Source of the DNA: a virus
Direction: 5' to 3' (one strand)
Virus record (IMG/VR): IMGVR_UViG_3300045988_122046
Length of the DNA stretch: 64,000 nucleotides
The notes beneath the pieces are model-generated. The model ran no database searches and was not told where the DNA came from. It worked only from the letters and a program-made list of their open reading frames with translations. This document shows, one piece after another, positions 579 to 64,000 of the stretch. Every line of letters starts with the position of its first letter. Within the stretch, counting starts at the first letter, position 1. The position numbers were made by a program, and so were the translations under genes.

Positions 579-584
579 CAAGGT

Positions 585-1465: not shown

Positions 1466-1478
1466 TACTTCCCAACAT

Positions 1479-2038: not shown

Positions 2039-2230
2039 TTGAATATGTATATTTGTCCTACTTGTAAAAGAAAATTTGAAAAAGAAGAAAGTCTTTCAAA
2101 ACATTTCCTTTCCTGTTGGAAAGAACAACATCCATCTTATATTTCTAAATCTGCTCCAAGGAGTGAGAATATCGAAACAAGACAGGTAAATGAAGATATA
2201 ATGAATTTCTTTAATTCTTTTAAGGGGTAA
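2039..2230 (+). CDS. small C2H2-like zinc-finger protein
   Basis: CPTCKRKFEKEESLSKHFLSC motif; RBS aaaggagat. Confidence 0.45.
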   Translation: MNMYICPTCKRKFEKEESLSKHFLSCWKEQHPSYISKSAPRSENIETRQVNEDIMNFFNSFKG

Positions 2231-2235
2231 GAATA

Positions 2236-2586: not shown

Positions 2587-2647
2587 AATTTGGGGAGTTA
2601 TACTGTAGGGGTAGCAGGCCAGTCTGGTTTTAATAGGAGATTTTATA

Positions 2648-3070: not shown

Positions 3071-3090
3071 AACTGGTGGCTTCGGTCTCG

Positions 3091-3115
3091 GGTGGTTCGA
3101 CTCCATCACTCCCCA
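3091..3115 (+). other. orphan tRNA 3' fragment E (T-arm ggtgg-ttcgact-ccatc plus acceptor strand actcccc, a)
   Basis: No complementary 5' acceptor strand (ggggagt) within 100 nt upstream. Confidence 0.35.
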
Positions 3116-3577
3116 TCAGGGTGCAACCTAACAGTTCCCTTTAATAACTGGCTTCGGCAAGCAGGGACTAACTGCTGCATAAGAGGTATGCAGGCTCTTA
3201 AAAAATAATAGGTATTTTATTTATGTGTAGTGAATATGGCACGAATTATAAGGTATCCTTAACACAGTTTTTTAAACAATCCTATTTAAGTTGACCATAT
3301 TGAATAAAGACTTTGTTAATGGGAAGATAGTCAATAAAAACTAAAGTAGTGAACCAGGCCCTTGATGGATTTTATAGGTGGGTTTAGTGCAAGGAGCATG
3401 AACAATGAACGCTTGCAGAGTAAGGGGTCGCATGAAAAGGTTTTTATTGACTATTTTTTTTATAAAAACCCAGCTCATATGAAAAGCATAAACTGCTCGC
3501 GCCGGACCCGAACGAGAGAACCGCAAACCCAAATCAAAAAAGCATTTTAGAATTTTTTAGACAAAAAGATTGCTATA

Positions 3578-3606
3578 TTGATTTTTTAATAAAAATATTA
3601 TATAAT
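3578..3606 (+). promoter_or_regulatory. conserved phage promoter (TTGATT-N17-TATAAT)
   Basis: -35 3578-3583, -10 3601-3606. Confidence 0.55.
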
Positions 3607-3646
3607 ATATTTATATTAAAGATAAGAGATAAAGGAGATTTAAAAA

Positions 3647-3997
3647 ATGATGAAAACTACTTTTGGTAAAGAAAAATATCGGGTATTTGTAGACCAGAAT
3701 CAGCGGAAGGTAATTGCAGTAAGCACTTATGCAGGTAAAAATGTAAAAGGCTATGCAAAGGCAGACCCAAGAGACACCTTTGATGTAGAAAAAGGTACTG
3801 AGCTTGCTATTGCCCGTTGTAATGCAAAGATTGCAGAAAAAAGAGCTAAAAGAGCGGCAAGTAAAGTTTCTGAGGCGCTTCAGGAGCTTGCAGAAGCTCA
3901 GAAGCATCTTGTAAAAATGCAGAAATATCTTGTAGATGCAAATGAGGCTTGCGATGTAGCAAAAGCCAATGTTGCGGCTATTGAAAAAACACTTTAA
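3647..3997 (+). CDS. hypothetical coiled-coil protein
   Basis: RBS aaaggagat, promoter upstream; antisense ORF 3611-4009 is low-complexity artefact. Confidence 0.55.
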   Translation: MMKTTFGKEKYRVFVDQNQRKVIAVSTYAGKNVKGYAKADPRDTFDVEKGTELAIARCNAKIAEKRAKRAASKVSEALQELAEAQKHLVKMQKYLVDANEACDVAKANVAAIEKTL

Positions 3998-4043
3998 TAT
4001 AAGGGGCATATGCCCCTTATATTTTTAATATAGGAGGTTTCAT

Positions 4044-4325
4044 ATGCAAAGAAATGCCAGAGGAATTAGAAGAAAACAATCTATTAGAAAAGCAAAGCAT
4101 AAAAGATATATTGCTGAAGTAGTATATGGATGGGAAGATGGATGGTATAGAAATCTTCATGCTTATAGTAAAAATAAAAATTTTTGTTCATGTGAATGTT
4201 GTTCTGGTCAATTTAAAACAAATCCAAAAGGACATTATAGCGCGGGCAAGCGTAACTGGTGTCGAATGGACCGTCGCAGATGGGAGAGTATGGATGAGCA
4301 AGAAAAAGATTTTTCGCAAGCCTAA
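4044..4325 (+). CDS. small basic Cys-rich protein
   Basis: RBS taggaggt; CSCECCSGQ cluster. Confidence 0.5.
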   Translation: MQRNARGIRRKQSIRKAKHKRYIAEVVYGWEDGWYRNLHAYSKNKNFCSCECCSGQFKTNPKGHYSAGKRNWCRMDRRRWESMDEQEKDFSQA

Positions 4326-4488
4326 ACCGCAACCACCAAAATGGTTTTGGTTAGATACTGATGGATGTTGGGATTGTAATTGTAACCATCATGGATGCCG
4401 TAATTGTAAGCGATTAAAAGAAATGCGTAAAATCGAAAAAGATAAACGTGAGCGAAAAGAAAAACAAAAAATCCAATCTTATTATTAA
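4294..4488 (+). CDS. small basic Cys-rich protein (overlaps previous gene in +1 frame; possible frameshift partner)
   Basis: ATG 4294 with ggagag upstream; CWDCNCNHHGCRNCKRL cluster; upstream part of ORF-track frame (4126-4290) looks non-coding. Confidence 0.35.
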   Translation: MSKKKIFRKPKPQPPKWFWLDTDGCWDCNCNHHGCRNCKRLKEMRKIEKDKRERKEKQKIQSYY

Positions 4489-4554
4489 GGCTGGATTTTT
4501 TATTTATTATCCAGTGTTATCTATTATAACATATTTTCAGTTGAAAAATCAAAA

Positions 4555-4583
4555 TTGATTTTTTATAAAAAATATTATATAAT
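4555..4583 (+). promoter_or_regulatory. conserved phage promoter
   Basis: TTGATT 4555-4560, TATAAT 4578-4583. Confidence 0.55.
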
Positions 4584-4614
4584 TATTATAGAAAAAGATA
4601 AGAGGATGATAAAT

Positions 4615-5238
4615 ATGAGAAAAATGTTTGGAACAATGTTAGCAACTGAAGATTACGCTTTAGGAGCAAGACGTTTATATGACAGCTTAAAAACTGTCAA
4701 TAGTATTTATCAAAATGATTTTTTTATTCTATTAGCCAGTAACATAAATATAGATAATATAAAAAAAATCTTTCCTGAAAAAGGTGTTTTTATTGCAAAT
4801 TTTAATCTTTTAAATACTCCTAATTTAGACAGAGATGAAAGGATTAAATATACAATAAATAAAATTTATGCTTTTCAAGTGCCAGTAGGAATCAAACTAT
4901 GTTTAGTTGATTCAGATATATATTTTATTAAAAACTGTGACCATTATTTAGACTTTCCTGCGGGAAGTGCTTATCCTGCCGCACATCCTCCTCACAGTGC
5001 GAATGGTGGAGTCATTATTTTTGAGAATGATTTTCAAAGTTTCTTAAAAGGAAAGGAAATTATTGATAATTTTAATGGTGATTTCCGCATTAATGATGAG
5101 TATATATGGAAAGAATTATGGCAGAATTTTTCAACTGATTATGAAAAACACTTGCCTATTGGAGATTGGTATAATAATGAAGAACAAATGCGAGTTGTTC
5201 ATGAAGATGGATTTCCAAAACAATGGATGATAAATTGA
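4615..5238 (+). CDS. family-8-like (glycogenin-like) nucleotide-sugar glycosyltransferase
   Basis: N-terminal FGTMLATEDYALGARRLYDSLKTV like GT8 (glycogenin AFVTL..YxxGAxVLxxSL) and DxD motif LVDSDIYF; start at ATG 4615 after RBS agaggatga. Confidence 0.5.
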   Translation: MRKMFGTMLATEDYALGARRLYDSLKTVNSIYQNDFFILLASNINIDNIKKIFPEKGVFIANFNLLNTPNLDRDERIKYTINKIYAFQVPVGIKLCLVDSDIYFIKNCDHYLDFPAGSAYPAAHPPHSANGGVIIFENDFQSFLKGKEIIDNFNGDFRINDEYIWKELWQNFSTDYEKHLPIGDWYNNEEQMRVVHEDGFPKQWMIN

Positions 5239-5263
5239 TTTTATTTTAAAAATATTATATAAT
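5235..5263 (+). promoter_or_regulatory. conserved phage promoter
   Basis: TTGATT 5235-5240, TATAAT 5258-5263. Confidence 0.55.
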
Positions 5264-5300
5264 ATATTTATAAGATAAAGAAAGAGAGAATGATAAATAA

Positions 5301-6419
5301 ATGCAGATTGTAAACACAGGAAATATTTATAGAATTTATGACGACAGTGTTCAGACTTCAGATAAATTACCTGCCCAGTGTTATCAGGTAGATTTTAATC
5401 CGCAAGCAGGATTCTATTTAACCAAGTATGATGACATTAAAATCTCTGAAAAGATTTATGGAGTTCATCTTCAGAAAGTCCAAAAGGTATTGGGTTCTTT
5501 TAAACTTGTTAATAGAAATCTTGGTGTAATTTTATCTGGCGATAAAGGTATTGGAAAATCTCTTTTTGCTAAATTACTTGCGGCAAAGGGCATAGAAGAA
5601 GGTTATCCACTTATTATTGTAAACTGTTATTATCCAGGAATTGCAGATTTTCTTGCTTCAATCCAACAGGAAGTTGTAGTTCTTTTCGATGAGTTTGATA
5701 AAACATTTTCTGGTAAAAGAGATGAATCAAATTCTATCGCCGATCCGCAAACAGAAATGCTTACACTCTTTGATGGATTAAGTCAAGGAAAGAAACTTTT
5801 TGTAATTACTTGCAATGAGTTAAGAGGGTTAAATGACTACCTTGTCAATAGACCTGGTCGTTTTCATTATCACATTCGCTTTGAGTATCCAACAGATATG
5901 GAAGTAAAATCCTATCTTGAAGATCAGGTTCCAGAGTGTATGTATGGTGAAATTAATAAAGTAATTGCATTTAGTCATAAAGTTAATCTTAATTATGACT
6001 GTTTGCGGGCAATTGCTTTTGAGCTTACTCTTGGCTCTACATTCGAAGATGCAATTAAAGACTTAAATATTATTCGTATTGAAAAAGAAACTTATAATGC
6101 AATTCTTTATTTTAAAGATGGCGGACATGTTAAAAGAACTGTTTACCTTGATTTATTTGAAGAAGAGACTATTACCATGGATTGTTATGATGAAAATGGC
6201 TTTAATTTCTATGCTTCATTTGAATCTGGCGGTATAACCTATGATTATGATAAAGGCGGTATGATCGTTGATGGTAAAAAGGTTGGTCTTAATTGGCTGC
6301 CTAACTATTATGATGATAATGATGAAGAGATTGCAGCTCTCAAAAAGCGTCAGGAAAGAGAGGTAGATTATATTTCTCTTCGTAGAGCTGGGGCAAAAAA
6401 TCTTCATTATGCTCTTTAA
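5301..6419 (+). CDS. AAA+ ATPase
   Basis: Walker A GDKGIGKS, Walker B VVVLFDEFDK, sensor-1 VITCNE. Confidence 0.7.
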   Translation: MQIVNTGNIYRIYDDSVQTSDKLPAQCYQVDFNPQAGFYLTKYDDIKISEKIYGVHLQKVQKVLGSFKLVNRNLGVILSGDKGIGKSLFAKLLAAKGIEEGYPLIIVNCYYPGIADFLASIQQEVVVLFDEFDKTFSGKRDESNSIADPQTEMLTLFDGLSQGKKLFVITCNELRGLNDYLVNRPGRFHYHIRFEYPTDMEVKSYLEDQVPECMYGEINKVIAFSHKVNLNYDCLRAIAFELTLGSTFEDAIKDLNIIRIEKETYNAILYFKDGGHVKRTVYLDLFEEETITMDCYDENGFNFYASFESGGITYDYDKGGMIVDGKKVGLNWLPNYYDDNDEEIAALKKRQEREVDYISLRRAGAKNLHYAL

Positions 6420-6427
6420 ATAAAAAT

Positions 6428-6456
6428 TTGCTTTTAAAAAAAATATATGTTATAAT
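6428..6456 (+). promoter_or_regulatory. promoter (TTGCTT-N17-TATAAT) driving tRNA-like element and tRNA-Leu
   Basis: -35 6428-6433, -10 6451-6456. Confidence 0.45.
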
Positions 6457-6473
6457 TTATATATAAATTAAAA

Positions 6474-6572
6474 AAGACACTTTCTCAGCAATTAAAGAAA
6501 ATGGATAATAAAATTGTGTTGTGAATGATTTTTAGAGGGTTCAAATCCCTTAAATGAAAAATAAAGTGTCTT
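6474..6572 (+). ncRNA. tRNA-like / pseudo-tRNA element
   Basis: Terminal 7-bp helix aagacac/gtgtctt encloses a canonical T-arm gaggg-ttcaaat-ccctt, but D and anticodon arms do not fold; cotranscribed with tRNA-Leu. Confidence 0.3.
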
Positions 6573-6592
6573 GATAAACTATTCAAGATAAA

Positions 6593-6614
6593 CTCCTCAC
6601 CGGAGTGTGAGGAG
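6593..6614 (+). other. perfect 8-bp GC-rich hairpin (ctcctcac-cggagt-gtgaggag) between tRNA-like element and tRNA-Leu
   Basis: Inverted repeat read directly; no T-run, so likely processing site or structural element rather than terminator. Confidence 0.4.
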
Positions 6615-6620
6615 TATTAA

Positions 6621-6702
6621 GCTGGTATGGTGGAACGGTATACACGGCGGACTTAAAATCCGCTGGCTCCGAGCCTTGCGGGTTCGAATCCCGCTACCAG
6701 CA
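6621..6702 (+). tRNA. tRNA-Leu (anticodon TAA), class II with long variable arm
   Basis: Acceptor gctggta/taccagc, anticodon stem gcgga/tccgc loop cuUAAaa, variable hairpin ggctc-cga-gagcc, T-arm gcggg-ttcgaat-cccgc; 82 nt. Confidence 0.75.
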
Positions 6703-6787
6703 CTGACTAAAAATCAATAGGAGGGATAATATATGTTCTATCATATTGGTACAGTCTTCTAAGTCCTTAGAAAGGAGGATTTAGATA

Positions 6788-7114
6788 ATGAGTAGAAGTT
6801 ATAAAAAAACGCCTTGGTCTGGAGATAGAAAAGGTAAAATAAAAAAACGGATTGCGAATCAAACAGTTCGTTCTTGGTTAAAACAGCATCCAGATGTAAA
6901 ACTTTCAAAAGGTGATTTTAAAAAAATTTATGAAACTTGGGACATTTGTGATTATGGATATAAAATGACTTGGGAAGAATATTGGGAGAGTGAAGTTAGA
7001 CATTATTATTGGTTTAAAATGAATTTTCCTGAAATGAAAACTTCTAAATATTGTAAATATCCAGATAAAAAAGAAACTTATAGACAGTGGTACAAATGGT
7101 ATAAAATGAAATAA
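6788..7114 (+). CDS. hypothetical W/Y-rich protein
   Basis: RBS aaaggaggat. Confidence 0.5.
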   Translation: MSRSYKKTPWSGDRKGKIKKRIANQTVRSWLKQHPDVKLSKGDFKKIYETWDICDYGYKMTWEEYWESEVRHYYWFKMNFPEMKTSKYCKYPDKKETYRQWYKWYKMK

Positions 7115-7115
7115 T

Positions 7116-7144
7116 TTGATTTTTATAAAATTTTTTGATATAAT
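7116..7144 (+). promoter_or_regulatory. conserved phage promoter upstream of tRNA-Gly
   Basis: TTGATT 7116-7121, TATAAT 7139-7144, leader AGAAAGTTAAAG. Confidence 0.55.
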
Positions 7145-7224
7145 AAATATAGAAAGTTAAAGAACTTTCCTCTTTTTAAATTTCCTCTTAAAAATAGCAA
7201 ATGTTTAAAACATTTGCTAAATAT

Positions 7225-7296
7225 GCGGGTGTAGTGTAGTTGGCAACATACGTGTCTTCCAAACATGTGTCACGGGTTCAAATCCCGTTATCCGCT
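7225..7296 (+). tRNA. tRNA-Gly (anticodon TCC)
   Basis: Acceptor gcgggtg/tatccgc (two G-U), D-stem gtgt/acat, anticodon stem cgtgt/acatg loop cuUCCaa, T-arm acggg-ttcaaat-cccgt; 72 nt. Confidence 0.65.
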
Positions 7297-7593
7297 CTAA
7301 AGAGCCATAAACTGCAAAACAATTTATATCTTCAAATGGATATTATTGGGTAAAATCACATACATATTAAAATATGATGATTTAATAATGCAATGCTTCT
7401 CAGTAGACTAAATAGGCTGGGCTCTTGATATACAAAGCAGTATTAGTGAAAAGAAGCATCTATTTAATTTTTAATGGTTTTATAATTTACATTAAGGCAT
7501 AAACAGCAATCGTTGATTAAATTCAAGCAAATATTTTATTATATGACAATAAAACATATTTTTGAAAAAGGATGATTATTATGCCTTGAAAAA

Positions 7594-7616
7594 AGGGGCA
7601 TTTTGTCCCCTTTTTT
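7594..7616 (+). terminator. rho-independent terminator
   Basis: gggg-cattttgt-cccc followed by TTTTTT; directly precedes tRNA-Lys. Confidence 0.5.
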
Positions 7617-7689
7617 GTGCCAGTAACTCAGTTGGTAGAGTATCAAACTTTTAATTTGAGAGTCGCGGGTTCAAGTCCCGCCTGGCACA
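7617..7689 (+). tRNA. tRNA-Lys (anticodon TTT)
   Basis: Acceptor gtgccag/ctggcac, D-stem actc/gagt, anticodon stem tcaaa/tttga loop cuUUUaa, T-arm gcggg-ttcaagt-cccgc; 73 nt. Confidence 0.8.
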
Positions 7690-7702
7690 CTTTTAAAGGA
7701 GA

Positions 7703-35486: not shown

Positions 35487-37193
35487 ATGGCTTCAATTGA
35501 AAAAAATATTTGGGATTATCTAATTAAAGAAATTAATAACCCATATGGTGTTGCCGGATTAATGGGTAACATCTATGCTGAATCTGGTATGATTCCAAAT
35601 AGAGTAGAAGTTTTATGCTTAAATAGATTAAAAGAACATGGTCAAGTATGGAATGATTCTACTTATACTGCGGCAGTTGATAATGGAAAAATTTCAAGAG
35701 AAACTTTTCTACATCCACTCCCTAATAAGCAATATGGATATGGGCTTTGCCAATGGACCAGCCCAGGTCGTAAAGCAGGATTATATGATTTAGCAAAAAT
35801 GAAACAAGCTTCTATTGGCAATGAATTAATTCAATTGCAATGGCTTATGACTGAATTAAAAAATAATTATTCTACAGTTTTATCAACTTTAAAAAATGCA
35901 ACAAGCGTAAGACAAGCTTCTGATATGGTCTTAACTCGTTTTGAATGTCCTGCTAATACAGGTGAAACTGTTAAAGCAACAAGAGCTAAGTATGGTCAGA
36001 GATATTATGATGCATATGCATCTAATAAAGGAGGAAACTCAATAGTGGCAAATTATAATAACTATATTAATTCTACTGGCACTCACTATATTTCTAATTC
36101 AGGTTCAGATGAAAATGGTGGATATCATAGTGGAAGAGCTGGTGACCAGACTGGTAGAGAATGGTATTTACGTTCTTGGTATAACAGGCCATGGAACTGT
36201 GTATTAAGATATGAAAAAGACCCAAGAGTAGGTCAAAAAATGGCTGAATTAAGCTGCGCCGCAGCTCTTAATAATTTAGTTGGTTATGACCAATATGAGA
36301 GAGATACTTATTGGGCTCATTTAAAAGCATCTAACTATGATCCTGCTCAAATTACTATTGCATGTGAAGCAGACTGTTCTGCAGGTGTAATTGCTAATAT
36401 TAGAGCAGTAGGATATTTACTTGGTATTCCAGCTTTACAACATATTAGTGCGAGCTATACTGGTGATATGAGAGCCGGTTTTAAGGCTGCTGGATTTACT
36501 GTTTTAACCGCAGATAAATATCTTTCTGGATATGATTATTTACTTCCTGGAGATGTTTTACTTAATGATGCTCATCATACAGCGACAAATGTTACAAGAG
36601 GACGTTTAGCAGCTAATTCTAACTCACCACAACCAAGCCCAGCTCCAGTAAAAACTAATACTACTTATGTTGGAAAAGGAATTGGTACTGCAACTGCAAA
36701 AACTGAGATGAATATTAGAAATAATTCTAATACAAATAGCTCTTCTTATGGAACTATTTCTAAAGGAACTAAAGTAGAAGTATTAGAGATTTTATCTAAT
36801 GGCTGGTATAAAATTGTATGGCCAGGTGCTTCATGCGGCTATGCTTATACTTCTAATTCTACTAAAACTTATTATTCATATGTAGCTAAAAAGAAGGCTC
36901 CTACAGCCACTAAACCAAAACCATCCAGTAGTAAAAAAAGTATGACTGCAAAAGAAGGTGCAACTGGATTCAATAAATCTCTTGCAGGTACATATCGTAC
37001 AACAGCTGATTTAAATATCCGTCATGGAGCAGGTACATCTAAAGCTCTTATGGTTACAATTCCAAAAGGAACAAAAGTAGCTAATTATGGATATTACTCA
37101 GTTAGCAATGGTTGTAAATGGCTATATGTCCAATTCACATATAAGAACGTAACTTATACAGGATTTGCTTCAAGCACATATTTACGTAAATAA
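35487..37193 (+). CDS. modular peptidoglycan hydrolase (endolysin): N-terminal lysozyme-like domain, central CHAP-like region, two C-terminal SH3b-like repeats
   Basis: GLMGNIYAESG lysozyme-like motif, Cys...His candidates (CSAGV..., NDAHH), SH3b-like GWYKIVWPG / CKWLYVQF; RBS ggaggt. Confidence 0.5.
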   Translation: MASIEKNIWDYLIKEINNPYGVAGLMGNIYAESGMIPNRVEVLCLNRLKEHGQVWNDSTYTAAVDNGKISRETFLHPLPNKQYGYGLCQWTSPGRKAGLYDLAKMKQASIGNELIQLQWLMTELKNNYSTVLSTLKNATSVRQASDMVLTRFECPANTGETVKATRAKYGQRYYDAYASNKGGNSIVANYNNYINSTGTHYISNSGSDENGGYHSGRAGDQTGREWYLRSWYNRPWNCVLRYEKDPRVGQKMAELSCAAALNNLVGYDQYERDTYWAHLKASNYDPAQITIACEADCSAGVIANIRAVGYLLGIPALQHISASYTGDMRAGFKAAGFTVLTADKYLSGYDYLLPGDVLLNDAHHTATNVTRGRLAANSNSPQPSPAPVKTNTTYVGKGIGTATAKTEMNIRNNSNTNSSSYGTISKGTKVEVLEILSNGWYKIVWPGASCGYAYTSNSTKTYYSYVAKKKAPTATKPKPSSSKKSMTAKEGATGFNKSLAGTYRTTADLNIRHGAGTSKALMVTIPKGTKVANYGYYSVSNGCKWLYVQFTYKNVTYTGFASSTYLRK

Positions 37194-37751: not shown

Positions 37752-39462
37752 ATGTCTGAGAACTATGGTGTAAAAGACATAAAAACTTTGGAAGGTATTG
37801 AAGCGATTCGATTACGTGCTGGAATGTATATCGGTAGTGTTGGACCTGCTGGAGTTAGACATATTACTCTTGAAATTATTTCCAATGTAATTGATGAATA
37901 CTTAAATGGATATTGTACAAAGTGTAATATTGAAGTAACAGAAAATGATGTTGTAACAGTAGTAGATGATGGACGTGGTGTTCCTTTTGGAAAAGCCGCA
38001 GATGGTTCAGAAACTCTTGAAAATATTTTTACTAAACTTCATACAGGAGCTAAATTTGATAGTTCTGGTAAAACTGGATATAATACATCTGGTGGTATGA
38101 ATGGTGTTGGTGCAAAAGCAACAAATGCATTATCAGATAAATTTATTGTCACTTCCAAAAGAGATGGTAAAATTGCAACAATGACATTTGAAAAAGGTGA
38201 AAGAAAAGATTTTAAAGTTGAAAAGTATGCGGGAAAAGATACTGGAACAACAATTACTTTTCATCCAGATGTTGAGATTTTTAAAGAAGGAATTTCACTT
38301 GATTACGAAGAATTAAAAAGACAAATTCAGGAATTGGCATATCTTTCTCCTGGATTAACTTTTACATTAAAATATAAAAACAAAGCTGAAGATGTAATTG
38401 TTTCTCAGAATGGTATTCTGGATTATATTCAAGATTTGAATAAAAAGAAAAATACTATTACATCTGTTTTTTATGCCGAAGCTTCCGAAGATAGAATTGG
38501 TGTAAAATTAGCAATGCTGTATAACGATAGTTATACTGATACTTATAAATTATATACAAACTCAATTCCAAATACAGCTGGAACTCATCTTACTGGATTT
38601 AGAACTGCATTAACTTCTGCAATTAATAATTACGCAAGAGAGAATAAACTTCTTAAAGAAAAGGATTCTAATATCGTAGGTGATGAGTTAAAAGAAGGTC
38701 TTGTATTAGTTCTTTCTTTTGTGATGCCAGACCCAGTCTTTTCAGGTCAGACAAAAGAGAAACTTGATTCAAGTGAAGGACGTACAATGGTCCAGAAGCT
38801 GGTATCAAAAGAGATTGCAATTTGGCTTGAGAGTCATCCTAATGATGCAAAAGCAATTATTAATAAGGCTTTATTAGCACGTGCTGCAAGAGAGAAAGCT
38901 AAAAAAGCTAAAGAAACAGTTCGTAAAGCGGATGTGAAGAAAAGGGCAGTAATGCCTGGTACATTAGCAGATGCAAGTTCTCGAAATAGAGCTTTTTGTG
39001 AAGTGTTTATTGTAGAGGGAAAATCTGCGGCCGGTTCAACAAAAGAAGCCAGGGATAGAGCTACCCAGGCTGTGTTCCCCGTTCGAGGTAAGATTCTTAA
39101 CGTATTGAAGGCAGACCTCGCGAAGGCATTAAAGAATGCAGAAATTGATGGTATGATTACTGCTTTTGGACTTGAAATTAAGGACGGAAAAGTAATTGTA
39201 AATAAAGATAAATTGCGTTATGGTAAAATTGTTATTACAGCCGATGCGGATGTTGATGGTAGTCATATTAGAGCGTTATTTTTAACCTTTATTTGGAAAT
39301 TTGCTCCGCAATTAATTGAAGATGGATATATTTATGCGGCAGTTCCTCCACTTTATAAAGTTACACAGGGAACTAAAATTACTTATCTAAAAGATGATGC
39401 GGCTCTTGAGGAGTTTAGAAAGACAGCTAAAAAATCTTTTGAGCTGGGTCGTATGAAAGGGT
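37752..39462 (+). CDS. topoisomerase II large subunit (GyrB/ParE-like, T4 gp39-like), exon 1
   Basis: GHKL ATPase and TOPRIM region (EVFIVEGKSAAGS, DADVDGSHI); exon ends at U39462 within conserved RYKG|LGEM motif. Confidence 0.8.
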
Positions 39463-40495
39463 AAGAGATAGTCTGGCCCTTATCCACTTTTCCTCTAATC
39501 AGAGGGGTTATTATCTTAGATAATAGCTAACGAGGCAGTCTTCAAAATATTTTGGGTATTTCAGGAAATCCTGAAATGGATAAAACTTAAATATTATTGG
39601 AGATAATCTCGTGGGAAAAAACTATAAGAGATTATCTTACATTTTATTATGTGAGGTATTCAATATGATAGGAATTTATAAGATAACAAACAAAATTAAT
39701 GGAGATGCTTATATTGGACAAAGCACTCAAATAGAAGAAAGATTTATAGAACATAAAAATCCTACAAATTGGGCAAGAGAATCTAATAAAAGTCTTTATA
39801 AAGCATTTATTCAATTTGGATTACAAAATTTTGATTTTTCCGTTTTAGAAGAATGCAAAAAAGAAGAATTAAATGATAAAGAACAATATTGGATTGGATA
39901 TTATAGTACATATCCTAATCAATATAATATGACTCCAGGAGGACAATTTAATGCAGGTGAATGTCATCCAAGTCATAAATTAACTGAAAAGGATGTGATT
40001 GATATTAGAACGAGATATAAAAATCACGAAAGAAAAAAAGACGTTTATTTATTATATGCTCATTTAATTGGGGAATCTGGCTTTCATAAAATTTGGAATG
40101 GTTCAACATGGAAAACAATAATGCCAGAAGTTTATACAAAAGAAAATAAAGATTTTCATGCTCATAATACTTCAAATGTAGGTTCTAAAAACGGAAGGTC
40201 TAAATTAACAGAAGAAGATGTTAAAAATATTCGCTTAAGGAAGAAAAATGGAGAGCAATTATCTTCCGTTTACAATGATTATTCTGATAAATTAACTTAT
40301 AAATCTTTTGAAAATGTTTGGTCTTATAGAAACTGGAAAAAAATTATAGTTTAAACCTGTATCGACTATTCCCTTTGTCGGGAAGTAGAAATACTATTGA
40401 TACGTATTTCAAAAAGGTGGACATGATGAAGGCAGTTAATACGTTAGCCGGAGTGAAGAAATAGTCAGTACCAATGGTGACATTGGAATAATACG
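39463..40495 (+). mobile_element. group I intron (1033 nt) carrying a GIY-YIG homing endonuclease ORF
   Basis: Exon1 ends with U, intron ends with G; internal guide ggccctt (39474-39480) pairs with exon end aagggu including U-G at splice site; splicing restores ...RMKG-L-GEMDPSEM... colinear with E. coli GyrB RYKGLGEMNPEQL. Confidence 0.7.
39665..40354 (+). CDS. GIY-YIG homing endonuclease (intron-encoded)
   Basis: IGIYKITNKINGDAYIGQSTQIEERFIEH motif; start at ATG 39665. Confidence 0.75.
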   Translation: MIGIYKITNKINGDAYIGQSTQIEERFIEHKNPTNWARESNKSLYKAFIQFGLQNFDFSVLEECKKEELNDKEQYWIGYYSTYPNQYNMTPGGQFNAGECHPSHKLTEKDVIDIRTRYKNHERKKDVYLLYAHLIGESGFHKIWNGSTWKTIMPEVYTKENKDFHAHNTSNVGSKNGRSKLTEEDVKNIRLRKKNGEQLSSVYNDYSDKLTYKSFENVWSYRNWKKIIV

Positions 40496-40683
40496 TAGGT
40501 GAGATGGACCCGTCCGAAATGGCTGAAACAGTTATGAATCCAGAAACCAGAACTCTTAAACAGATATGTATGGAGGATGCAGAAGAAGCTGCTAAAACTT
40601 TTATGGGATTGATGGGTGAGTCAGTTGTTTATAGAAAGAAATTTATCGAAGAAAATGCATGGAGAGCAAATATTGACGTATAA
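40496..40683 (+). CDS. topoisomerase II large subunit, exon 2 (GyrB C-terminal tail, T4 gp60-like)
   Basis: (L)GEMDPSEMAETVMNPETRTLKQI...LMGESVVYRKKFIEENAWRANIDV* matches GyrB C-terminus ...[25 protein letters not shown]. Confidence 0.7.
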
Positions 40684-41832: not shown

Positions 41833-42111
41833 ATGGATAAGAATAAAGAACAGTTAAAAAAACAATTACTACAATTTGTTAAATCAGTTGAAGAACCTAT
41901 GACAAAAGAAGAATATGATAAATATATGAAAGAATATCATAAACAAAATCCTCTTTTAAATACTGGTTCTGGTTATTTATATGTTCCATCAGAAGATGTT
42001 GTTGTTAGTGCTGATTCAATTTATAATTTTATAGAAAGAGTTATAGATGAAAGTTTGATGGATGTAAAAATGCAATATTATAAAGAATTATTTGATAAGG
42101 GAGAGTCTTAA
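41833..42111 (+). CDS. hypothetical protein
   Basis: ORF with upstream AT-rich promoter-like region. Confidence 0.45.
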   Translation: MDKNKEQLKKQLLQFVKSVEEPMTKEEYDKYMKEYHKQNPLLNTGSGYLYVPSEDVVVSADSIYNFIERVIDESLMDVKMQYYKELFDKGES

Positions 42112-44489
42112 TGAGTGAGAATATTATTCAAGTAAATATTAAAGATGAAATTGAACAGAGTTTACTTGATTATGGAATGAGTATCATTTCAGATCGAGCT
42201 TTACCTTCAGCAGAAGATGGATTAAAACCTGTTAATAGACGTATCTTATATGATATGTTTGATAAAGGTTTTATGAATAATAAGAAATTTGTAAAGTGCG
42301 CTCAGCCGGTCGGAGATACAATGGGTAGATTTCATCCGCATGGTGATAGTTCTATTTATGGTGCATTAGTATGGATGTCACAGGAATGGAACATGAGATA
42401 TCCACTCATTTCTTGGCATGGTAATAACGGAAGCCGAGATGGTGATGAACCGGCTGCATACAGATATACAGAATGTAAGCTTTCTAAGCTCGGAGAAGAA
42501 ATGCTTGCTGATATTAAAAAGAATACAGTAGATTGGATGAATGCTTATACAGATGAAGAGCAGGAGCCAGTTTATTTACCTGGCCGCATTCCAAATCTTA
42601 TCGTAAATGGTACTTCTGGAATTGCATGGGCTATGGCTTGTTCATTTGCGCCACATAATTTATCAGAAGTTATGGATGCAGCTATTCATCTTTTGGAAAA
42701 TCCAGAATGCGACATTAGAGAGCTTTTAAACTATATTAAAGGTCCAGATTTTCCAACAGGCGGATTACTTATTAATAAAGATGAACTTGAAACAGCTTAT
42801 CTTACAGGAAAAGGTCGTGCAAGATTAAGAGGTGAATATACAATCGAATCTTCCAAAAGTGGAGATAGTATTGTTTTTACCTCAATGCCTTATAAGGTTT
42901 CAAAGGAGGATTTAATTGTTGAAATTGACAACCTTTGCGAACAAGGTGAGATTAATGGCATTACAACGATTCGCGATGAATCAAACCAAAAAGGTGTCAG
43001 GTTTGTCATTGAATTGGGAAAAGGAGTGTCAACAGCTCCAATTATTGCAAAACTTTTTAAGTCCACAAGACTTGAAAGTACGTATTCATTCAACCAAGTT
43101 GCACTGGTTGACAAAAAGCCAAGACTTCTTAATATCAAACAATTATTAGAAAACTATATTGAGCATCAAAAAGATGTTCTTTTAAGAAAAACTAAATTTG
43201 ATATTGAAAAAGTTCAGGCTAAAATTCATATTCTTGAAGGATTGCTTATTGCTTTAGAAGATATTGATAATATCATTTCACTCATTAAAAAGTCTGCAAG
43301 TGCGGCTGAAGCTAAAGTTGTTCTTATGAATAAATATAATCTTAGCGAGGCACAGTCTAAAGCAATTTTGGATATGAAATTATCTCGTTTAGCAAAATTA
43401 GAATCTGTTGAAATAAGGAATGAAAAAGATTCTTTATTAGTTAAAGAAGGTGAATTAAATCAGATTCTTTTAAATCCAGTTCCAGAAATGAAAAAGAACT
43501 TTACAGAGATTAAAACCTCATATGGAGATGCTCGTAGAACTACAATCACACAGGTAAATATCACAAAAGAAGAAAAAGAGATTGAATATGTAGAACCAGA
43601 AAAATGTGTTGTTGTAATGACAGAAGATGGGTTAATTAAACGTATTCCTTCTACAAGTTTCAGAACTCAGAGAAGAAACGGAAAAGGTATTAAAACACAG
43701 GGTGATGTTGTTAAAACTACCATCCGCACAAATACTATTGATTCTCTGATGGTATTTACAACAAAAGGAAAAATGTATCGTATCCTTGTAAATGATATTC
43801 CAGTAGGTACAAATGTATCTAAAGGCCAGTCAATTAAGTCTTTAATTGCAATGGATACTGATGAAGAGCCTAATTTAATTTATTCTATTTATAGAGACAC
43901 TGATGCAAAATATTTATTATTTGTAACAAAGAATGGAATTACAAAGAAAACCTCATTAGAGGAATATACAAATACAAAGAAAAAGACTGGAATTATTGCT
44001 ATTAATCTTAAAGAGGATGATACATTAGTATCTGTAAATCTTGTTAAAGATGAAGATTTAGTTCTTTTAACCTCTAATGGTATGGGAATTAAGATTAATT
44101 CTGGAGAGATTTCAGCTTCTGGTAGAGCAACAGCAGGCGTTAAAGGAATCACTTTAAAGAAAGATGATTTTGTAGTTGCGGCATTACCAGTTCGTAATAA
44201 AACAGATTACATTGCAATCTTTTCATCTAAAGGTCTTGGAAAGAAGATTGAAATGGATGAATTAGTTCTTCAGAAACGTGCGGGAAAAGGTTTGATTATT
44301 TATAAACCAACAGATGAAACAGGAACAGTTATTTCTGGTGCTTTAGTTGCGGACGAGGATAATATTCTTGTTGTTGGCAAATTAAGTTCAATTTGTATTT
44401 CCGCAAAAGATATTCCTCTTGCAAGCAGAATTGCAACAGGTAATCAGTTAATTAAAAACGGTGAAATTACTTCTGTGACAAAAATTTAA
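42111..44489 (+). CDS. topoisomerase II subunit A (GyrA/ParC-like, T4 gp52-like)
   Basis: RALPSAEDGLKPVNRRILYDM (GyrA active-site region RALPDVRDGLKPVHRR), C-terminal beta-pinwheel repeats. Confidence 0.85.
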   Translation: MSENIIQVNIKDEIEQSLLDYGMSIISDRALPSAEDGLKPVNRRILYDMFDKGFMNNKKFVKCAQPVGDTMGRFHPHGDSSIYGALVWMSQEWNMRYPLISWHGNNGSRDGDEPAAYRYTECKLSKLGEEMLADIKKNTVDWMNAYTDEEQEPVYLPGRIPNLIVNGTSGIAWAMACSFAPHNLSEVMDAAIHLLENPECDIRELLNYIKGPDFPTGGLLINKDELETAYLTGKGRARLRGEYTIESSKSGDSIVFTSMPYKVSKEDLIVEIDNLCEQGEINGITTIRDESNQKGVRFVIELGKGVSTAPIIAKLFKSTRLESTYSFNQVALVDKKPRLLNIKQLLENYIEHQKDVLLRKTKFDIEKVQAKIHILEGLLIALEDIDNIISLIKKSASAAEAKVVLMNKYNLSEAQSKAILDMKLSRLAKLESVEIRNEKDSLLVKEGELNQILLNPVPEMKKNFTEIKTSYGDARRTTITQVNITKEEKEIEYVEPEKCVVVMTEDGLIKRIPSTSFRTQRRNGKGIKTQGDVVKTTIRTNTIDSLMVFTTKGKMYRILVNDIPVGTNVSKGQSIKSLIAMDTDEEPNLIYSIYRDTDAKYLLFVTKNGITKKTSLEEYTNTKKKTGIIAINLKEDDTLVSVNLVKDEDLVLLTSNGMGIKINSGEISASGRATAGVKGITLKKDDFVVAALPVRNKTDYIAIFSSKGLGKKIEMDELVLQKRAGKGLIIYKPTDETGTVISGALVADEDNILVVGKLSSICISAKDIPLASRIATGNQLIKNGEITSVTKI

Positions 44490-61476: not shown

Positions 61477-62814
61477 ATGAGCAAAAAGTGGTTTAATTGT
61501 CATAACCATACAGAGTATTCAAACTTACGTCTTTTGGATTCAACCAATCACCCAAAAGATTTAATCAATAAAGCAATCGAATTAGGACTTAGTGGTATCT
61601 GTATAACTGACCATGAAGCCCTTTGTGCGCACGTTGAAATAAATAAAATTGCGACAGAATTAAGAGAAACAAATCCTGATTTTGTGATTGGATTAGGAAA
61701 TGAGATTTATTTAACTGATACAAGAAATCATGGTCAGAAATATTATCACTTTATTTTGATTGCTAAAGATGCAATCGGTCATAAAGCATTAAGAGAGTTA
61801 AGTTCTACAGCTTGGTATTATTCATATATGGATAGAGGTATGGAAAGAGTTCCAACTTTAAAAGATGAATTAACTGAGATTGTAAAACATTATAAAGGTC
61901 ATTTAATTGCGACCAGTGCATGTATTGGTGGAGAATTATCTTCATGGTCTTTATTATATGCAGAAGCATTAAAAGTAAATGACCAAAAGATGGCAATGGA
62001 ATTTCAGAAAAAAATTCAAGATTTTATGAATTTTGTACTTGATTTATTTGGAGATGATTTCTATATTGAATGCGCTCCATCTAATAAAGAAGATCAAATG
62101 ACTGTAAATTCTCAGTTGTTTAAAATTGCAACTGCATATAATGTTAAGATGGTTGTTGGAACTGACTCTCATTATTTAACAAAAGAAGATAGAATGGTTC
62201 ATAAAGCATATCTTAATTCAAAAGGTGGAGAGCGTGAGGTTGATGACTTTTATGAATTTGCCAGACTTATGGATAGCGATGAAGTAGAAGAATTATTGTC
62301 TCCATGTTTTCCAGATGGATATGTAGATGTAATTTTTGAAAACACTTTAGATTTACAGAATAAAATTGAATATTACAGTCTTTTTCATAAGCAGGATATT
62401 CCATCTGTAGAAGTTAAAGATTATCCAAAAACAAGAGGATTTAGGCAGTATCCACATTTATCTGCAATGTTAATGGATGATGATATTCAGAATCGTTATT
62501 GGGTAAATGAATGTTTAAATCAGCTTGAAAAACTTGAAAAAATTAATGATAGACGTTATCTTGATGAACTTGAAGAAGAAGCACGAGTTAAAAGTATCAT
62601 TAGTGAAAAACTTGAAACAAATATGTTCCGTTATCCAAATACACTTCAGCATTATATTGATATGATTTGGGATTGCGGTTCAATGGTAGGTGCTGGTCGT
62701 GGTTCCAGTTGCGCCGCACTTAATCATTACCTTATGGGAATTACTCAGCTGGATCCAATTGAGTGGGATTTACCTTTCTTCCGTTATCTTAACGAAGAGA
62801 GAATCGAACTCGGT
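61477..62814 (+). CDS. dnaE: DnaE-type DNA polymerase III alpha, exon 1 (PHP domain)
   Basis: PHP motifs HNHTEYS, ITDHEAL; exon ends at U62814 inside ...FRYLNEERIELG|, matching E. coli DnaE ...FERFLNPERVSMP|DFDVDFC. Confidence 0.7.
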
Positions 62815-63979
62815 AGTCTGATATTGATATTGCCGAGTTGTAAATAAAAAACGTGAACCTTGCTAAAGGGTGTATTGTTATAAAAACAGTGCTAACGGTA
62901 TCAGCAAAATAAGGTATGTTTAATTAATACACGAATCAGCTGACTAAGAGAGCGAGTGGCCAGAAATGGTTGGACTTTGTAATACCGTGCTTTAAAAATA
63001 ACAAAATATCTTGGTCAATGTTTGTCAAAGTCAATATCGCCTTTATTATATAAAATATGAAAGGTGGTAATGATATGGAATATTTTATTTATATGACAAC
63101 AAATTTAATAAATGGACATAAATATATAGGTAAACATCATGGAGAATTAAATGATAGTTACTTAGGAAGTGGACTTTTATTAAAACAAGCGGTTAAAAAA
63201 TATGGTAAAGAGAATTTTAAAAGAGAAATATTATATATTTCTAAAAACGAAGAAGAAAATTCTCAAAAAGAAAAAGAATTTATAAATGTTTATAATGCAG
63301 TAGAAGATAAAAACTTTTATAATATTCATGAAGGCGGTAATGGTGGTAATACAATTGCTGGATGGTCTTTAGAACAAAAAGCCGCTTATTCTAAAAAATT
63401 AAGTGAACAGAGAAAAGGAGATAAAAATTCTCGATATGGTGTTCATTTAACAGAAGAAACAAAAAATAAAATAAGACAAAATAGAGACACTTCATATATG
63501 CAAACAACAGAATATAAAAAAAATATGTCTAAGGCAGTTAGTGGAAAAAAGAATGGTATGTATGGTAAACATCATACAGAAGAGTCAAAACGATTAATGT
63601 CTGAACATAGTAAAGGATTAAATTCTGGAGAAAAAAATGGCATGTATGGAAAAAGTAAAAATAATGCAATTAATGGTAAAAAAATCTATATGTATGATGA
63701 AAATAATAATTTAATTCGAGTTTTTAATGCAAAAACAGCCGCATTAGATTTTTTAGGATTAAAAGGACATGTAGGATTAAATAAAGCTATTAAGGAGCAT
63801 ACGATATATAAAGGTTATTTTTGGAGTGTAGAGACTAAATGAGAATTAAATATTTTATATTCTCAAGAGGAATAGAGAATAAGCACTATTCCGTAGCGCG
63901 TTTTAGCAATAATTGAAGTAAAATATTCTCAGTAAATTATTGTGAAAGAGATAGTCCAATACTTAAAAAGTATATAATG
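62815..63979 (+). mobile_element. group I intron (1165 nt) carrying a GIY-YIG homing endonuclease ORF
   Basis: Exon1 ends in U, intron ends in G (aaug|); internal guide gccgag (62832-62837) pairs with exon end cucggu with U-G; splicing gives RIELG-DIDIDIC colinear with RVSMP-DFDVDFC. Confidence 0.6.
63057..63842 (+). CDS. GIY-YIG homing endonuclease with NUMOD3-like repeats (intron-encoded)
   Basis: EYFIYMTTNLINGHKYIGKH...; repeats NGMYGKHHTEESK / NGMYGKSKNN. Confidence 0.75.
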   Translation: MKGGNDMEYFIYMTTNLINGHKYIGKHHGELNDSYLGSGLLLKQAVKKYGKENFKREILYISKNEEENSQKEKEFINVYNAVEDKNFYNIHEGGNGGNTIAGWSLEQKAAYSKKLSEQRKGDKNSRYGVHLTEETKNKIRQNRDTSYMQTTEYKKNMSKAVSGKKNGMYGKHHTEESKRLMSEHSKGLNSGEKNGMYGKSKNNAINGKKIYMYDENNNLIRVFNAKTAALDFLGLKGHVGLNKAIKEHTIYKGYFWSVETK

Positions 63980-64000
63980 GATATTGATATCGACATATGC
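63980..64000 (+). CDS. dnaE: DnaE exon 2 (partial, runs off window): DIDIDIC...
   Basis: matches conserved PDFDVDFC segment after PHP domain. Confidence 0.45.

Follow-up and report, generated by a model that had tools for sequence, protein, structure and literature searches.

Comparable introns and split genes

The described systems most similar to the element analyzed here include: (i) the td intron of phage T4, which encodes I-TevI, (ii) the nrdD (sunY) intron of T4, which encodes I-TevII, (iii) an interrupted topoisomerase gene of the Lactococcus phages AM1-AM12 (Audreyjarvisvirus), (iv) the nrdF intron of the Bacillus cereus group, which encodes I-BthII, and (v) the split topoisomerase gene of T4 (gene 39/mobA/gene 60). 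The element occupies positions 39463..40495 (1,033 nt) of the window, i.e., the whole 64,000-nt stretch of viral DNA from the IMG/VR record IMGVR_UViG_3300045988_122046. It is read as a mobile IA-type group I intron in a GyrB-like topoisomerase gene, with a probability of about 0.9, based on presence/absence among related contigs, RNA structure with covariation and homology to T4 introns. The intron, its exons and its open reading frame (ORF) are on the + strand.

The T4 td intron is similar to the window intron in that both are of group IA, interrupt a gene of nucleotide or DNA metabolism and loop a GIY-YIG ORF out of P6a. Both have P7.1 and P7.2 hairpins between P7 and the 3' strand of P3 (P3'), and their core motifs are near-identical (AACGGGGAA...AAUCCCGUG, CGACUAU, GAAAC followed by P3', AGAUAUAGUC and a GNRA-capped P9). 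The structure of I-TevI also aligns with the N-terminal domain of the window endonuclease. By contrast, the td host gene encodes thymidylate synthase, and the td intron has a P2 hairpin before P3, where the window intron has no P2 and instead two hairpins after the P3 5' strand. The P7.2 loop of td is short, whereas that of the window intron comprises 9 conserved nt and pairs with the first extra hairpin, and td has extra P9.1/P9.2 elements. The T4 nrdD intron shares with the window the IA core, a P1 followed directly by P3 without P2, and a GIY-YIG enzyme; however, its ORF lies downstream of P9, leaving the core uninterrupted, and hairpins between P3 and P4 are missing.

In Lactococcus phages AM1-AM12, the same codon (...SRSKG|LGELD...) is also interrupted by a member of this intron family; its P6a holds a GIY-YIG endonuclease related to that of the window (34% identity), and a GyrA-like gene follows. 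The phage records, however, list three separate CDSs (gp175, gp174 and gp173) with no intron annotated, and the sequence has diverged (~80% identity across 54 nt of 3' core sequence). The words 'intron', 'topoisomerase', 'gyrase' and 'homing endonuclease' are all absent from the paper on these phages. The nrdF intron of the Bacillus cereus group is, by its description, also similar (group IA with P6a, P7.1 and P7.2 and a GIY-YIG ORF that starts in the P6a loop), and its splicing is demonstrated by RT-PCR (PMC2248736). This intron differs from that of the window in that it is chromosomal or prophage-borne and resides in a ribonucleotide reductase gene.

The T4 gene 39/gene 60 split, to which the sequence-only reading likened the locus, is comparable insofar as a phage topoisomerase large-subunit gene is broken by a homing-endonuclease gene. 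The likeness is otherwise superficial. In T4, the inserted gene is a free-standing HNH endonuclease (mobA) with no intron, and the products gp39 and gp60 are two polypeptides with added tails and a translational bypass, split elsewhere in the protein (PMC2988022; bioRxiv 10.1101/2022.08.31.505936).

The interrupted GyrB-like gene

The GyrB-like ORF (37752..39464) is terminated by an in-frame TAA (39462-39464) composed of U39462 and the first two bases of the intron. U39462 is, therefore, the first base of both this stop codon and a Leu codon. Exon 1 (37752..39462) encodes most of the topoisomerase II large subunit, as found by the ORF list and Pfam, and the intron-less alleles continue unbroken past U39462. 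Exon 2 (40496..40683) provides the final 61 codons and the stop, is related to the GyrB C-terminus (Pfam PF00986) and is continuous with exon 1 in the intron-less alleles. The exon boundaries proposed from the sequence (U39462 and 40496) and the G at the intron 3' end (G40495) all hold when the ORF list is compared with the joined exons. Joining U39462 to U40496 generates the codons GGG T|TA GGT GAG ATG (predicted junction ...AAAGGGU then UAGGUGAG...) and a peptide that, as anticipated, is colinear with GyrB (...ELGRMKG-L-GEMDPSEMAETVMNPETRTL..., or ...FELGRMKG-L-GEMDPSEM... at the junction). The insertion point is between bases 1 and 2 of the Leu codon of the conserved KG-L-GEM motif. Neither boundary can be moved, as the bases that flank the two junctions differ and a one-base shift in either direction yields GVG or a stop codon in place of the conserved GLG.

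The assignment of the host gene as GyrB-like is supported by its Pfam domains (HATPase_c, DNA_gyraseB, Toprim, GyrB_hook and the GyrB C-terminus). The domain set (GHKL ATPase, transducer, Toprim and C-terminal GyrB) is complete and is accompanied by a GyrA-like partner, encoded by an intact downstream gene (42111-44489; ORF list and Pfam). The spliced peptide matches PF00986 over profile positions 2-63 (77.6 bits), while exon 2 by itself matches positions 15-63 (55.5 bits). Residues 5-632 of the spliced protein align unbroken to many uninterrupted phage and bacterial GyrB genes, with 40-44% identity over the full length. A Megablast search with the locus as query found nothing in 50,697 phage records, and the phage has no close cultured relative.

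Structure of the intron RNA

The non-coding flanks of the endonuclease ORF fold into a full group I core with covariation, in agreement with the group I intron reading made from the sequence. Covariation is judged from the 11 introns found at this exact site, two of which are ORF-less. In this set, 92.1% of the alignment cells pair, compared to 37-44% when the partners are slid, and 46 of 93 pairs (P1 and P10 included) have changes on both sides; the observed pairing and covariation values are reached by 0 of 500 shuffles. RNAalifold, run without a supplied structure, recovers P1, P3, both extra hairpins, P4, the base of P5, P6, P7.1, P7.2 and P9. The P3-P7 pseudoknot, the P4-P5-P6 domain, P8 and P9 are all present, and covariation is noted in each helix of the core except P7 and P6, which are constant within the same-site set. 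For P7, covariation evidence is lacking because its pairs are invariant, whereas P6 varies across the wider family (GGG/CCU, GGC/GCU and GAC/GUU, as read by eye).

P1 and P10 are the helices that define the splice sites, and compensatory changes occur in both. The internal guide GGCCCUU (39475-39481), recognized in the sequence-only reading 12 nt into the intron, indeed pairs through GCCCUU (39476-81) with the exon end AAGGGU (39457-62) to form P1 (39457..39481), including the U-G wobble at the 5' splice site (U39462·G39476). This U·G pair is retained in 11 of 11 same-site introns, while compensatory changes are found elsewhere in P1 (e.g., an A-U to G-C change at pair 8/32 in L091, and exon AAGGAU opposite guide GUCCUU in L048). 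The P10 portion of the guide, GUCUG (39471..39475), is complementary to UAGGU (40496-40500), the first five bases of exon 2; in L126b, where the strands are GUCCG and UGGGU, a U-A pair has undergone compensatory replacement by C-G.

The P3 5' strand UCCACU (39483..39488) follows directly after P1 and pairs with GGUGGA (40416..40421), which holds the position of the T4 td P3' (GAUAGA after GAAAC). Both sides are changed in 5 of 6 P3 pairs among the same-site introns, RNAalifold predicts the helix independently, and a test of native against non-native partners in 90 family members gives p 6e-8. An early P3 candidate, GCUAACG (39526-32) with CGUUAGC (40442-48), was rejected: it leaves no room for P8, its 5' half corresponds to J3/4 and P4, and its complementarity is lost in relatives (e.g., CGUAAGC in L031).

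Two hairpins, both supported by covariation and RNAalifold, separate the P3 5' strand from P4. The first, CCUCU-AAUC-AGAGG (39492..39505), is in the position of P3.1, a recognized optional pairing (PMC3873408). The second, GGU-UAUUAUC-UUA-GAUAAUA-GCU (39506..39528), is in the P3.2 position and is followed by an AA linker to P4; its inner pairs are changed on both sides in 7 of 7 cases, and RNAalifold adds the GGU/GCU pairs to the stem. P4 (ACGAGG/UCUCGU; 39530..39612) encloses P5, P5a and P5b and is assigned by covariation (CGGGG/UCCCG versus CGAGG/UCUCG across the family) and by similarity to T4 td, in which the P4 surroundings match those of the window (AACGGGGAA...AAUCCCGUG). A helix initially taken as P4 (UCUUCAA.../...UUGGAGA) is re-assigned as P5, as comparison of the family and T4 td places P4 at ACGAGG/UCUCGU.

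The base of the ORF-holding loop is formed by P6 and P6a, with 5' strands GGG and AAACUAUAA (39613..39627) and 3' strands UUAUAGUUU and CCU (40344..40358); the final codons of the endonuclease ORF, with its stop, overlap the P6a 3' strand. In the 89 ORF-carrying family members, the ORF flanks pair across the ORF at -16.2 kcal/mol for native compared to -7.0 kcal/mol for non-native partners (p 6e-44). The P7 5' strand GACUAU (40364..40369), or 'R' element, is invariant in the family. It is followed by the P7.1 hairpin UCCC-UUUGUC-GGGA (40370..40383; both sides changed in 3 of 4 pairs) and the P7.2 hairpin GAAAUAC/GUAUUUC (40388..40410; 6 of 7 pairs), which is capped by the conserved 9-nt loop UAUUGAUAC (40395-40403). 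The GAU of this loop is complementary to the AUC(A) of the P3.1 loop, and the two loops covary family-wide (GAU/AUC, GGU/ACC, GAC/GUC, GAG/CUC, AGC/GCU and AAU/AUU).

P8 (40422..40455) includes the stems CAU/GUG, GGC/GCC and UAA/UUA, an internal loop and a UACG loop. Its outer stem is changed on both sides in 3 of 3 pairs, while its inner part is common to close relatives only. J8/7 (AAGAA) and the P7 3' strand AUAGUC, or 'S' element (40456..40466), are invariant and align to AGAUAUAGUC of the T4 introns. P9 (40468..40495) consists of an outer GUA/UAC, identified by RNAalifold and with an A-U/G-C exchange in 5 sequences (pairs 320-322/345-347), and an inner CCAAUG-GUGA-CAUUGG with compensatory changes in 5 of 6 pairs; the terminal G40495 is immediately 3' of the P9 helix.

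Subgroup and homology to known introns

The P7.1 and P7.2 hairpins between P7 and P3', a trait of subgroup IA2, are present and align with those of the T4 introns. The 5' element order of IA2 (P1-P2-P3-J3/4-P4) is absent, with the window arranged as P1-P3-hairpin-hairpin-AA-P4 compared to P1-P2-P3-UAAA-P4 in td. Since this order is unlike that of T4 td, the assignment to IA2 is not clean and the intron is filed as subgroup IA. A more tentative proposal, which we think somewhat doubtful, is that the family forms a large, uncatalogued phage subclass of IA that lacks P2, has two hairpins between the P3 5' strand and J3/4, and forms a kissing-loop pairing of P3.1 with an enlarged L7.2, for which the loop covariation is taken as proof. 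While P3.1 is known as an optional helix, no description of a P3.1-L7.2 loop pairing was found in the literature searched.

On covariance-model scores, the window intron core is homologous to the self-splicing td, nrdD and nrdB introns of T4, the records of which carry group IA intron annotation. Model R1, built from the 3' domain of this intron family only, detects its own family at >100 bits and matches the P7-P9 core of T4 td (47.8 bits, E 5e-10), nrdD (42.7 bits, E 9e-9) and nrdB (22.3 bits, E 1e-3), with the P7 5' strand aligned to CGACUAU in all three. Weak R1 matches elsewhere in the window (18 bits at 3263-3344 and 11 bits at 36054-36143) are regarded as noise and not as further copies.

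Rfam, suggested as a check in the sequence-only reading, did not provide the expected support: the window yields no group I match, even with E values up to 10 allowed, and 25 related loci, scanned together with it at gathering and E-value thresholds, likewise give none. The T4 td control, with its ORF in P6a, is equally missed, while T4 nrdD is found at 105 bits. The window and td introns are missed because the ORF splits the core; thus, the silence of Rfam on the window says little. RF00028 scores the full-length ORF-less intron of L126b at 24.5 bits (E 8e-4), compared to a gathering score of 50; the RF00028 seed includes one IA2 sequence only, with P7 omitted (PMC2238919). The standard Rfam scan is largely blind to this intron family, which the family-specific R1 detects.

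The GIY-YIG endonuclease

The ORF looped out of P6a (39665..40354) encodes a protein of 229 aa that starts at ATG 39665, with a ribosome-binding site (GAGG) at 39653-39656. Its recognition as a GIY-YIG endonuclease is upheld by Pfam PF01541 (E 8e-9; 36.1 bits compared to a cut-off of 22.6), the homing endonuclease family phrog_7168 (E 3e-35) and the I-TevI catalytic domain (PDB 1MK0/1LN0; E 7e-6). In the I-TevI alignment, the GIY, the YIG, the Arg of EERF, the Glu of KEQYW and the Asn of QYN all coincide, and the catalytic domain is, as judged from these residues, intact.

Distribution of the intron and its family

Nine related IMG/VR contigs (L001, L003-L009 and L011) lack precisely this 1,033-nt segment and encode without a break the peptide predicted from splicing (...FELGRMKGLGEMDPSEM...), the intron-less allele reading ...CGTATGAAAGGTCTTGGCGAGATGGAC... 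at the insertion site. Two others (L002 and L010) have the identical insert at the identical position. Intron identity among the window, L002 and L010 is 99.3-100%, whereas that of the flanking exon 1 is only 94-96%, and the intron-plus and intron-minus genomes are from one IMG dataset; both observations fit recent lateral spread. Among near-identical genomes of one dataset, the GyrB-like gene has up to three different intron sites. The two other introns of the gene (in L007 and L008) are also preceded by U and end in G.

At least 8 more contigs, as well as the cultured Lactococcus phages AM1-AM12, have a homologous intron at this site. Four exact-motif scans identify >200 IMG/VR stretches with introns of the family, and its insertion sites in phage topoisomerase genes include KG|LGEM, DADVDG and PVRG|K. 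Cultured phages with the family are limited to Lactococcus AM1-like, Enterococcus EF1/VRE9_3 and Prevotella Lak phages; a BLASTN search of cultured phages with the 3' consensus of the family returned Enterococcus and Prevotella Lak records only, with no link to the Streptococcus thermophilus lysin intron.

Alternative explanations

A split gene that functions without splicing, in which a 570-aa protein and a separate 59-aa C-terminal peptide would reassemble (cf. T4 gp39/gp60 and Aeh1 NrdA), is considered very unlikely. Functional phage genes split by endonuclease insertion are known (PMC2988022), for Lactococcus phage AM1, GenBank lists three separate CDSs in the same layout, and exon 1 has an in-frame TAA end while an ATG at 40504 is just 3' of an AGGUGA-like sequence. 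The AGGUGA is, however, 1 nt from the ATG, and a near-identical GGCGAGATG encodes Gly-Glu-Met in the intron-less alleles; thus, it is not a dedicated start signal. Known splits retain added C- and N-terminal tails (bioRxiv 10.1101/2022.08.31.505936), whereas comparison to the intron-less alleles reveals no such tails or extra residues at either exon end of the window gene. The ~340 nt of non-coding sequence around the ORF is, moreover, the covarying group I core, with P1 and P10 extending to both exon ends. The same site is also occupied by ORF-less introns of ~260 nt in more distant topoisomerase genes (L045 and L126b), which are expressible only via RNA splicing.

There is similarly little chance that the intron is decayed and no longer splices, leaving gyrB as a truncated or inactive pseudogene. 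The silence of Rfam on the window could be taken in this sense, but all helices of the core are intact in the window and a (nearly) identical intron is found in three otherwise diverged genomes. Both exons are, in addition, open and conserved at the protein level, and the gene for the GyrA-like partner, further downstream, is likewise intact.

An assembly artefact or chimera is highly improbable: while the window may derive from a metagenome assembly, L002 and L010, which are independent IMG/VR contigs, carry the same insert at the identical base, and homologous same-site introns occur in the further contigs and cultured Lactococcus phages. An intein or other protein-level insertion, although replication proteins including gyrase are frequent intein targets (PMC4760082), is refuted by the reading frames, as exon 1 is closed by the stop at 39462-64 and the endonuclease ORF has its own start 200 nt farther downstream, in a different frame; a Hint/intein domain was also not found by Pfam.

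Proposed splicing and homing

For the mobile group I intron, the splicing chemistry, endonuclease activity and homing are inferred as follows. The pre-mRNA would fold such that the exon end AAGGGU pairs with the guide GCCCUU (P1), and a free guanosine bound by P7 would attack after U39462. The guide GUCUG would then align exon 2 (P10), enabling the 3' OH of U39462 to attack after G40495 and join the exons for synthesis of a single GyrB-like protein of about 631 residues. In co-infecting relatives, the endonuclease would cut copies of the gene that lack the intron, and repair from the intron-bearing copy would spread it.

Implications for phage topoisomerase genes

The element is of an ordinary phage kind; it is the host gene and the site for which no report was found. 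A limited literature search revealed no group I intron in a phage gyrase/topoisomerase gene, an absence that is not proof of novelty. The GyrB-like gene of this large phage, like that of the cultured Lactococcus AM1-like phages, calls for annotation as a single spliced gene, and annotation as a truncated topoisomerase with a 59-71-aa 'topoisomerase' fragment is wrong. If the subclass architecture and its tertiary contact are undescribed, the family would extend the group I fold by a new, well-supported structural variant, and, if the subclass reading is true, KG|LGEM, DADVDG and PVRG|K would be hot spots in phage topoisomerase genes. The up to three intron sites in near-identical genomes of one dataset provide a natural snapshot of ongoing homing. 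The ATPase subunit of type II topoisomerase, at its universally conserved KG-L-GEM motif, thus joins the essential phage genes colonized by intron/endonuclease pairs.

Host gene and exon junction

The 1,033-nt insert at 39463-40495 (+) of the window interrupts a GyrB-like topoisomerase gene and is, with a probability of roughly 90%, a group I intron that carries a homing endonuclease. The GyrB-like ORF (37752-39464, +, 570 codons) has the Pfam domains HATPase_c, DNA_gyraseB, Toprim and GyrB hook in series and ends at a TAA (39462-39464), and a 59-codon ORF (40504-40683, +) covers no more of the Pfam GyrB C-terminal domain than positions 15-63. The frame is preserved when U39462 is joined to U40496, giving ...FELGRMKG-L-GEMDPSEMAETVMNPETRTL..., and the product matches PF00986 from position 2 to position 63 (77.6 bits, versus 55.5 bits for exon 2 alone). 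Uninterrupted GyrB genes align with the joined protein in one piece at 40-44% identity, and the spliced product predicted by an earlier, sequence-only reading is the protein that intron-less relatives in IMG/VR encode.

Presence and absence among related phages

An IMG/VR search with exon 1 recovers 11 loci from phages that are 79-98% identical at the protein level. The 1,033-nt insert lies at the identical base in L002 and L010 and is absent from L001, L003-L009 and L011, which read ...FELGRMKGLGEMDPSEM... without interruption. Carriers and intron-less relatives differ by precisely the insert; thus, the insertion is exact and the junction proposed earlier (39462/40496) holds, a one-base shift of either boundary losing the conserved Leu. 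The junction codons (GGG T|TA GGT in intron-plus and GGT CTT GGC in intron-less genes) differ synonymously, at positions that base-pair with the guide sequence of the intron. Intron identity among the window, L002 and L010 is 99.3-100%, against 94-96% for exon 1, and one IMG dataset yields both carriers and non-carriers; both observations fit a recent lateral spread.

At 3020-4010 of locus L003, the first 74 nt of the gene run into a short out-of-frame tail, behind which stand a free-standing GIY-YIG endonuclease gene (249 aa) and then a new, diverged 5' end for the gene (LSEEILLKKGKEDYGVKDIRT...). Here an endonuclease gene has been inserted and the start of the host gene duplicated; the arrangement is not that of an intron.

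The GIY-YIG endonuclease

The GIY-YIG homing endonuclease placed within the intron by the sequence-only reading is borne out by a 229-codon ORF (39665-40354, +) with matches to Pfam GIY-YIG at E 8e-9, to phrog_7168 ('homing endonuclease') at E 3e-35 and, at E 7e-6, to 1MK0/1LN0, structures of the I-TevI catalytic domain; the GIY and YIG motifs and the Arg, Glu and Asn residues line up. A GAGG stands 8 nt upstream of its ATG. Among cultured phages, its closest relatives come from Enterococcus, Lactococcus and Prevotella Lak phages and are either intron-borne or free-standing endonucleases.

Group I membership and fold

Rfam group I models, named earlier as a check, find no group I intron in the window (E up to 10), and the T4 td control is likewise missed. 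The Rfam group I model RF00028 detects the uninterrupted core of T4 nrdD at 105 bits and nrdB at only 35.7 bits, and has no match to td, in which the ORF splits the core as in the window intron. The ORF-less L126b intron, which occupies the same KG|LGEM codon of a topoisomerase gene (same-site), aligns to the entire model with a score of 24.5 bits (E 8e-4), short of the gathering score (50). According to the GISSD paper, the Rfam seed held a single IA2 sequence and omits P7 (PMC2238919). Since Rfam showed no group I intron in the window, the element was characterized by comparison, starting from the family, that is, introns sharing conserved blocks with the window intron. R1, a covariance model of the 3' domain of 31 family members, matches the window at 40352-40496 (105.8 bits, E 1.4e-24) as well as T4 td (47.8 bits, E 5e-10), nrdD (42.7 bits, E 9e-9) and nrdB (22.3 bits, E 1e-3). 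The T4 matches are located at the P7-P9 cores of introns that the T4 records annotate as group IA with I-TevI, I-TevII and I-TevIII, respectively. The window intron belongs to subgroup IA of the group I family and is predicted to splice and to home.

The fold, derived by comparison with T4 td and nrdD, includes (all +) the guide-sequence P1 anticipated earlier (39457-62/39476-81), with U·G at the splice site, P10 (39471-75/40496-500), P3 (39483-88/40416-21), two hairpins between P3 and P4 (39492-505; 39506-528), P4 (39530-35/39607-12) enclosing P5, P5a and P5b, and P6/P6a (39613-27/40344-58) bracketing the endonuclease ORF. It continues with P7 (40364-69/40461-66), P7.1 (40370-83), P7.2 (40388-410), P8 (40422-55), J8/7 AAGAA (40456-60), P9 (40468-94) and the terminal G (40495), also foreseen. 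Across 11 aligned same-site introns, 92.1% of cells pair (versus 37-44% with slid partners) and 46 of 93 pairs are changed on both sides, values reached by 0 of 500 shuffles. Compensatory changes extend to the helices that define the splice sites, P1 (L091, L048) and P10 (L126b). RNAalifold, independently of the proposed structure, recovers P1, P3, both extra hairpins, P4, the P5 base, P6, P7.1, P7.2 and P9, and adds a 3-bp outer P9 stem by which the terminal G adjoins the helix. In 89 ORF-carrying family members, the ORF flanks pair with their own partner at -16.2 kcal/mol versus -7.0 kcal/mol with the flanks of other members (p 6e-44); thus, the ORF lies within the P6a loop, like that of T4 td.

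The first 11 bases of the intron (39463-39473, AAGAGAUAGUC) are a near-repeat of J8/7-P7' (40456-40466, AAGAAAUAGUC) and could compete for the P7 5' strand; this start is kept in some same-site relatives, not in Lactococcus phage AM1 (AAGAGGAAAUCC). A 7-nt complementarity between GCUAACG (J3/4-P4, 39526-39532) and CGUUAGC (P8 loop region, 40442-40448) is probably chance, as it is not kept in relatives (L031 CGUAAGC).

Alternative explanations

A gene split without splicing, with the pieces translated separately, is very improbable: the covarying RNA core pairs with both exon ends, ORF-less introns occupy the same site, the exons are without the added tails that known splits retain, and exon 2 has no dedicated start signal. 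The analogy drawn earlier to T4 genes 39/60 is superficial, as site and mechanism differ (PMC2988022; bioRxiv 10.1101/2022.08.31.505936). An intron that has decayed and no longer splices is just as improbable, with all helices intact and the element identical in three diverged genomes. An intein is excluded by the reading frames.

Other sites and other hosts

In related contigs, this gene has two further insertions, one after DADVDG in L007 and one after PVRG in L008 and L010, that have conserved blocks in common with the window insert; each starts after U and finishes in G. An exact-pattern scan of IMG/VR for two common blocks (GTATCGACTAT...CTATTGATACG) returns at least 120 stretches, and the matches listed include ORF-less introns of about 260 nt and at least 10 further introns that interrupt other topoisomerase genes at the same KG|LG codon. 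Two of these 10 or more, in L045 and L126b, are without any ORF. In near-identical phages, the GyrB-like gene has at least three intron sites (inside/after the Toprim DADVDG, after PVRG|K, and at KG|LGEM). In the related loci, its introns, all starting after U and ending in G, are at 5510-6602 in L007, 2805-3986 in L008, 5329-6509 and 6883-7916 in L010 (both with endonucleases) and about 5830-6100 and 6294-6555 in L126 (both ORF-less).

The intron is also present, at the same codon, in the cultured Lactococcus phages AM1-AM12, whose records label the locus 'DNA topoisomerase II / homing endonuclease / DNA topoisomerase'. For AM1 (NC_049854.1, 51679-56732), RefSeq divides the locus into three genes, gp175 'DNA topoisomerase II', gp174 'homing endonuclease' and gp173 'DNA topoisomerase' (71 aa); its sequence has an intron of this family at that codon, and a P6a stem of 14 bp surrounds the ORF. 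Judged from sequence, every AM1-AM12 and P1048 record is probably misannotated in giving separate genes.

Elsewhere in the window

A second intron-like element lies at the window end (61477-64000). A DNA polymerase fragment (61477-62847; phrog_405 positions 41-442 of 1190) runs to a stop and is followed by the P4-like pair GCUAACGGUAUC...AAUACCGUG (62891-62990) and a GIY-YIG endonuclease ORF (63057-63842; phrog_314, E 1e-41). Beyond the ORF are GCACUAU...AGAGAUAGUCC, a short hairpin and, near 63990, a G; exon 2 would lie past the window end. R1 has no match in this element, which thus probably belongs to a different IA lineage. A cluster of six tRNA genes (82-8240; Rfam tRNA, 55-74 bits) fits a large virulent phage with a genome of about 190 kb.

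Relation to known introns and a candidate tertiary contact

By analogy, the window element would work like T4 td/I-TevI. The td (IA2) 5' layout is not matched: the window intron is without P2 and, unlike td, has two hairpins between the P3 5' strand and J3/4, in the position of P3.1/P3.2, of which P3.1 is an optional pairing (PMC3873408). In the literature searched, no phage gyrB or topoisomerase II gene is described as carrying a group I intron; introns in essential genes are otherwise common in large phages (PMC12880540, PMC11878797). The element adds a new member to a well-known kind; its host gene and site were not found described, and the sequence-only reading of it, in which splicing is predicted, was correct.

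The loop of the first extra hairpin (AUC, window 39497-39501) covaries with the P7.2 loop (GAU, 40395-40403) across the family. Given as P7.2/first hairpin, the pairs are GAU/AUC (most of 91), GGU/ACC (about 35 of 45), GAC/GUC (6 of 6), AAU/AUU (5 of 8, the remaining AAU cases being mis-detected hairpins), GAG/CUC (1) and AGC/GCU (1). This covariation indicates a putative kissing-loop tertiary contact between the two hairpins. A loop-loop contact supported by covariation, in a large subclass that Rfam does not detect, may interest RNA structure specialists more than the window intron itself.
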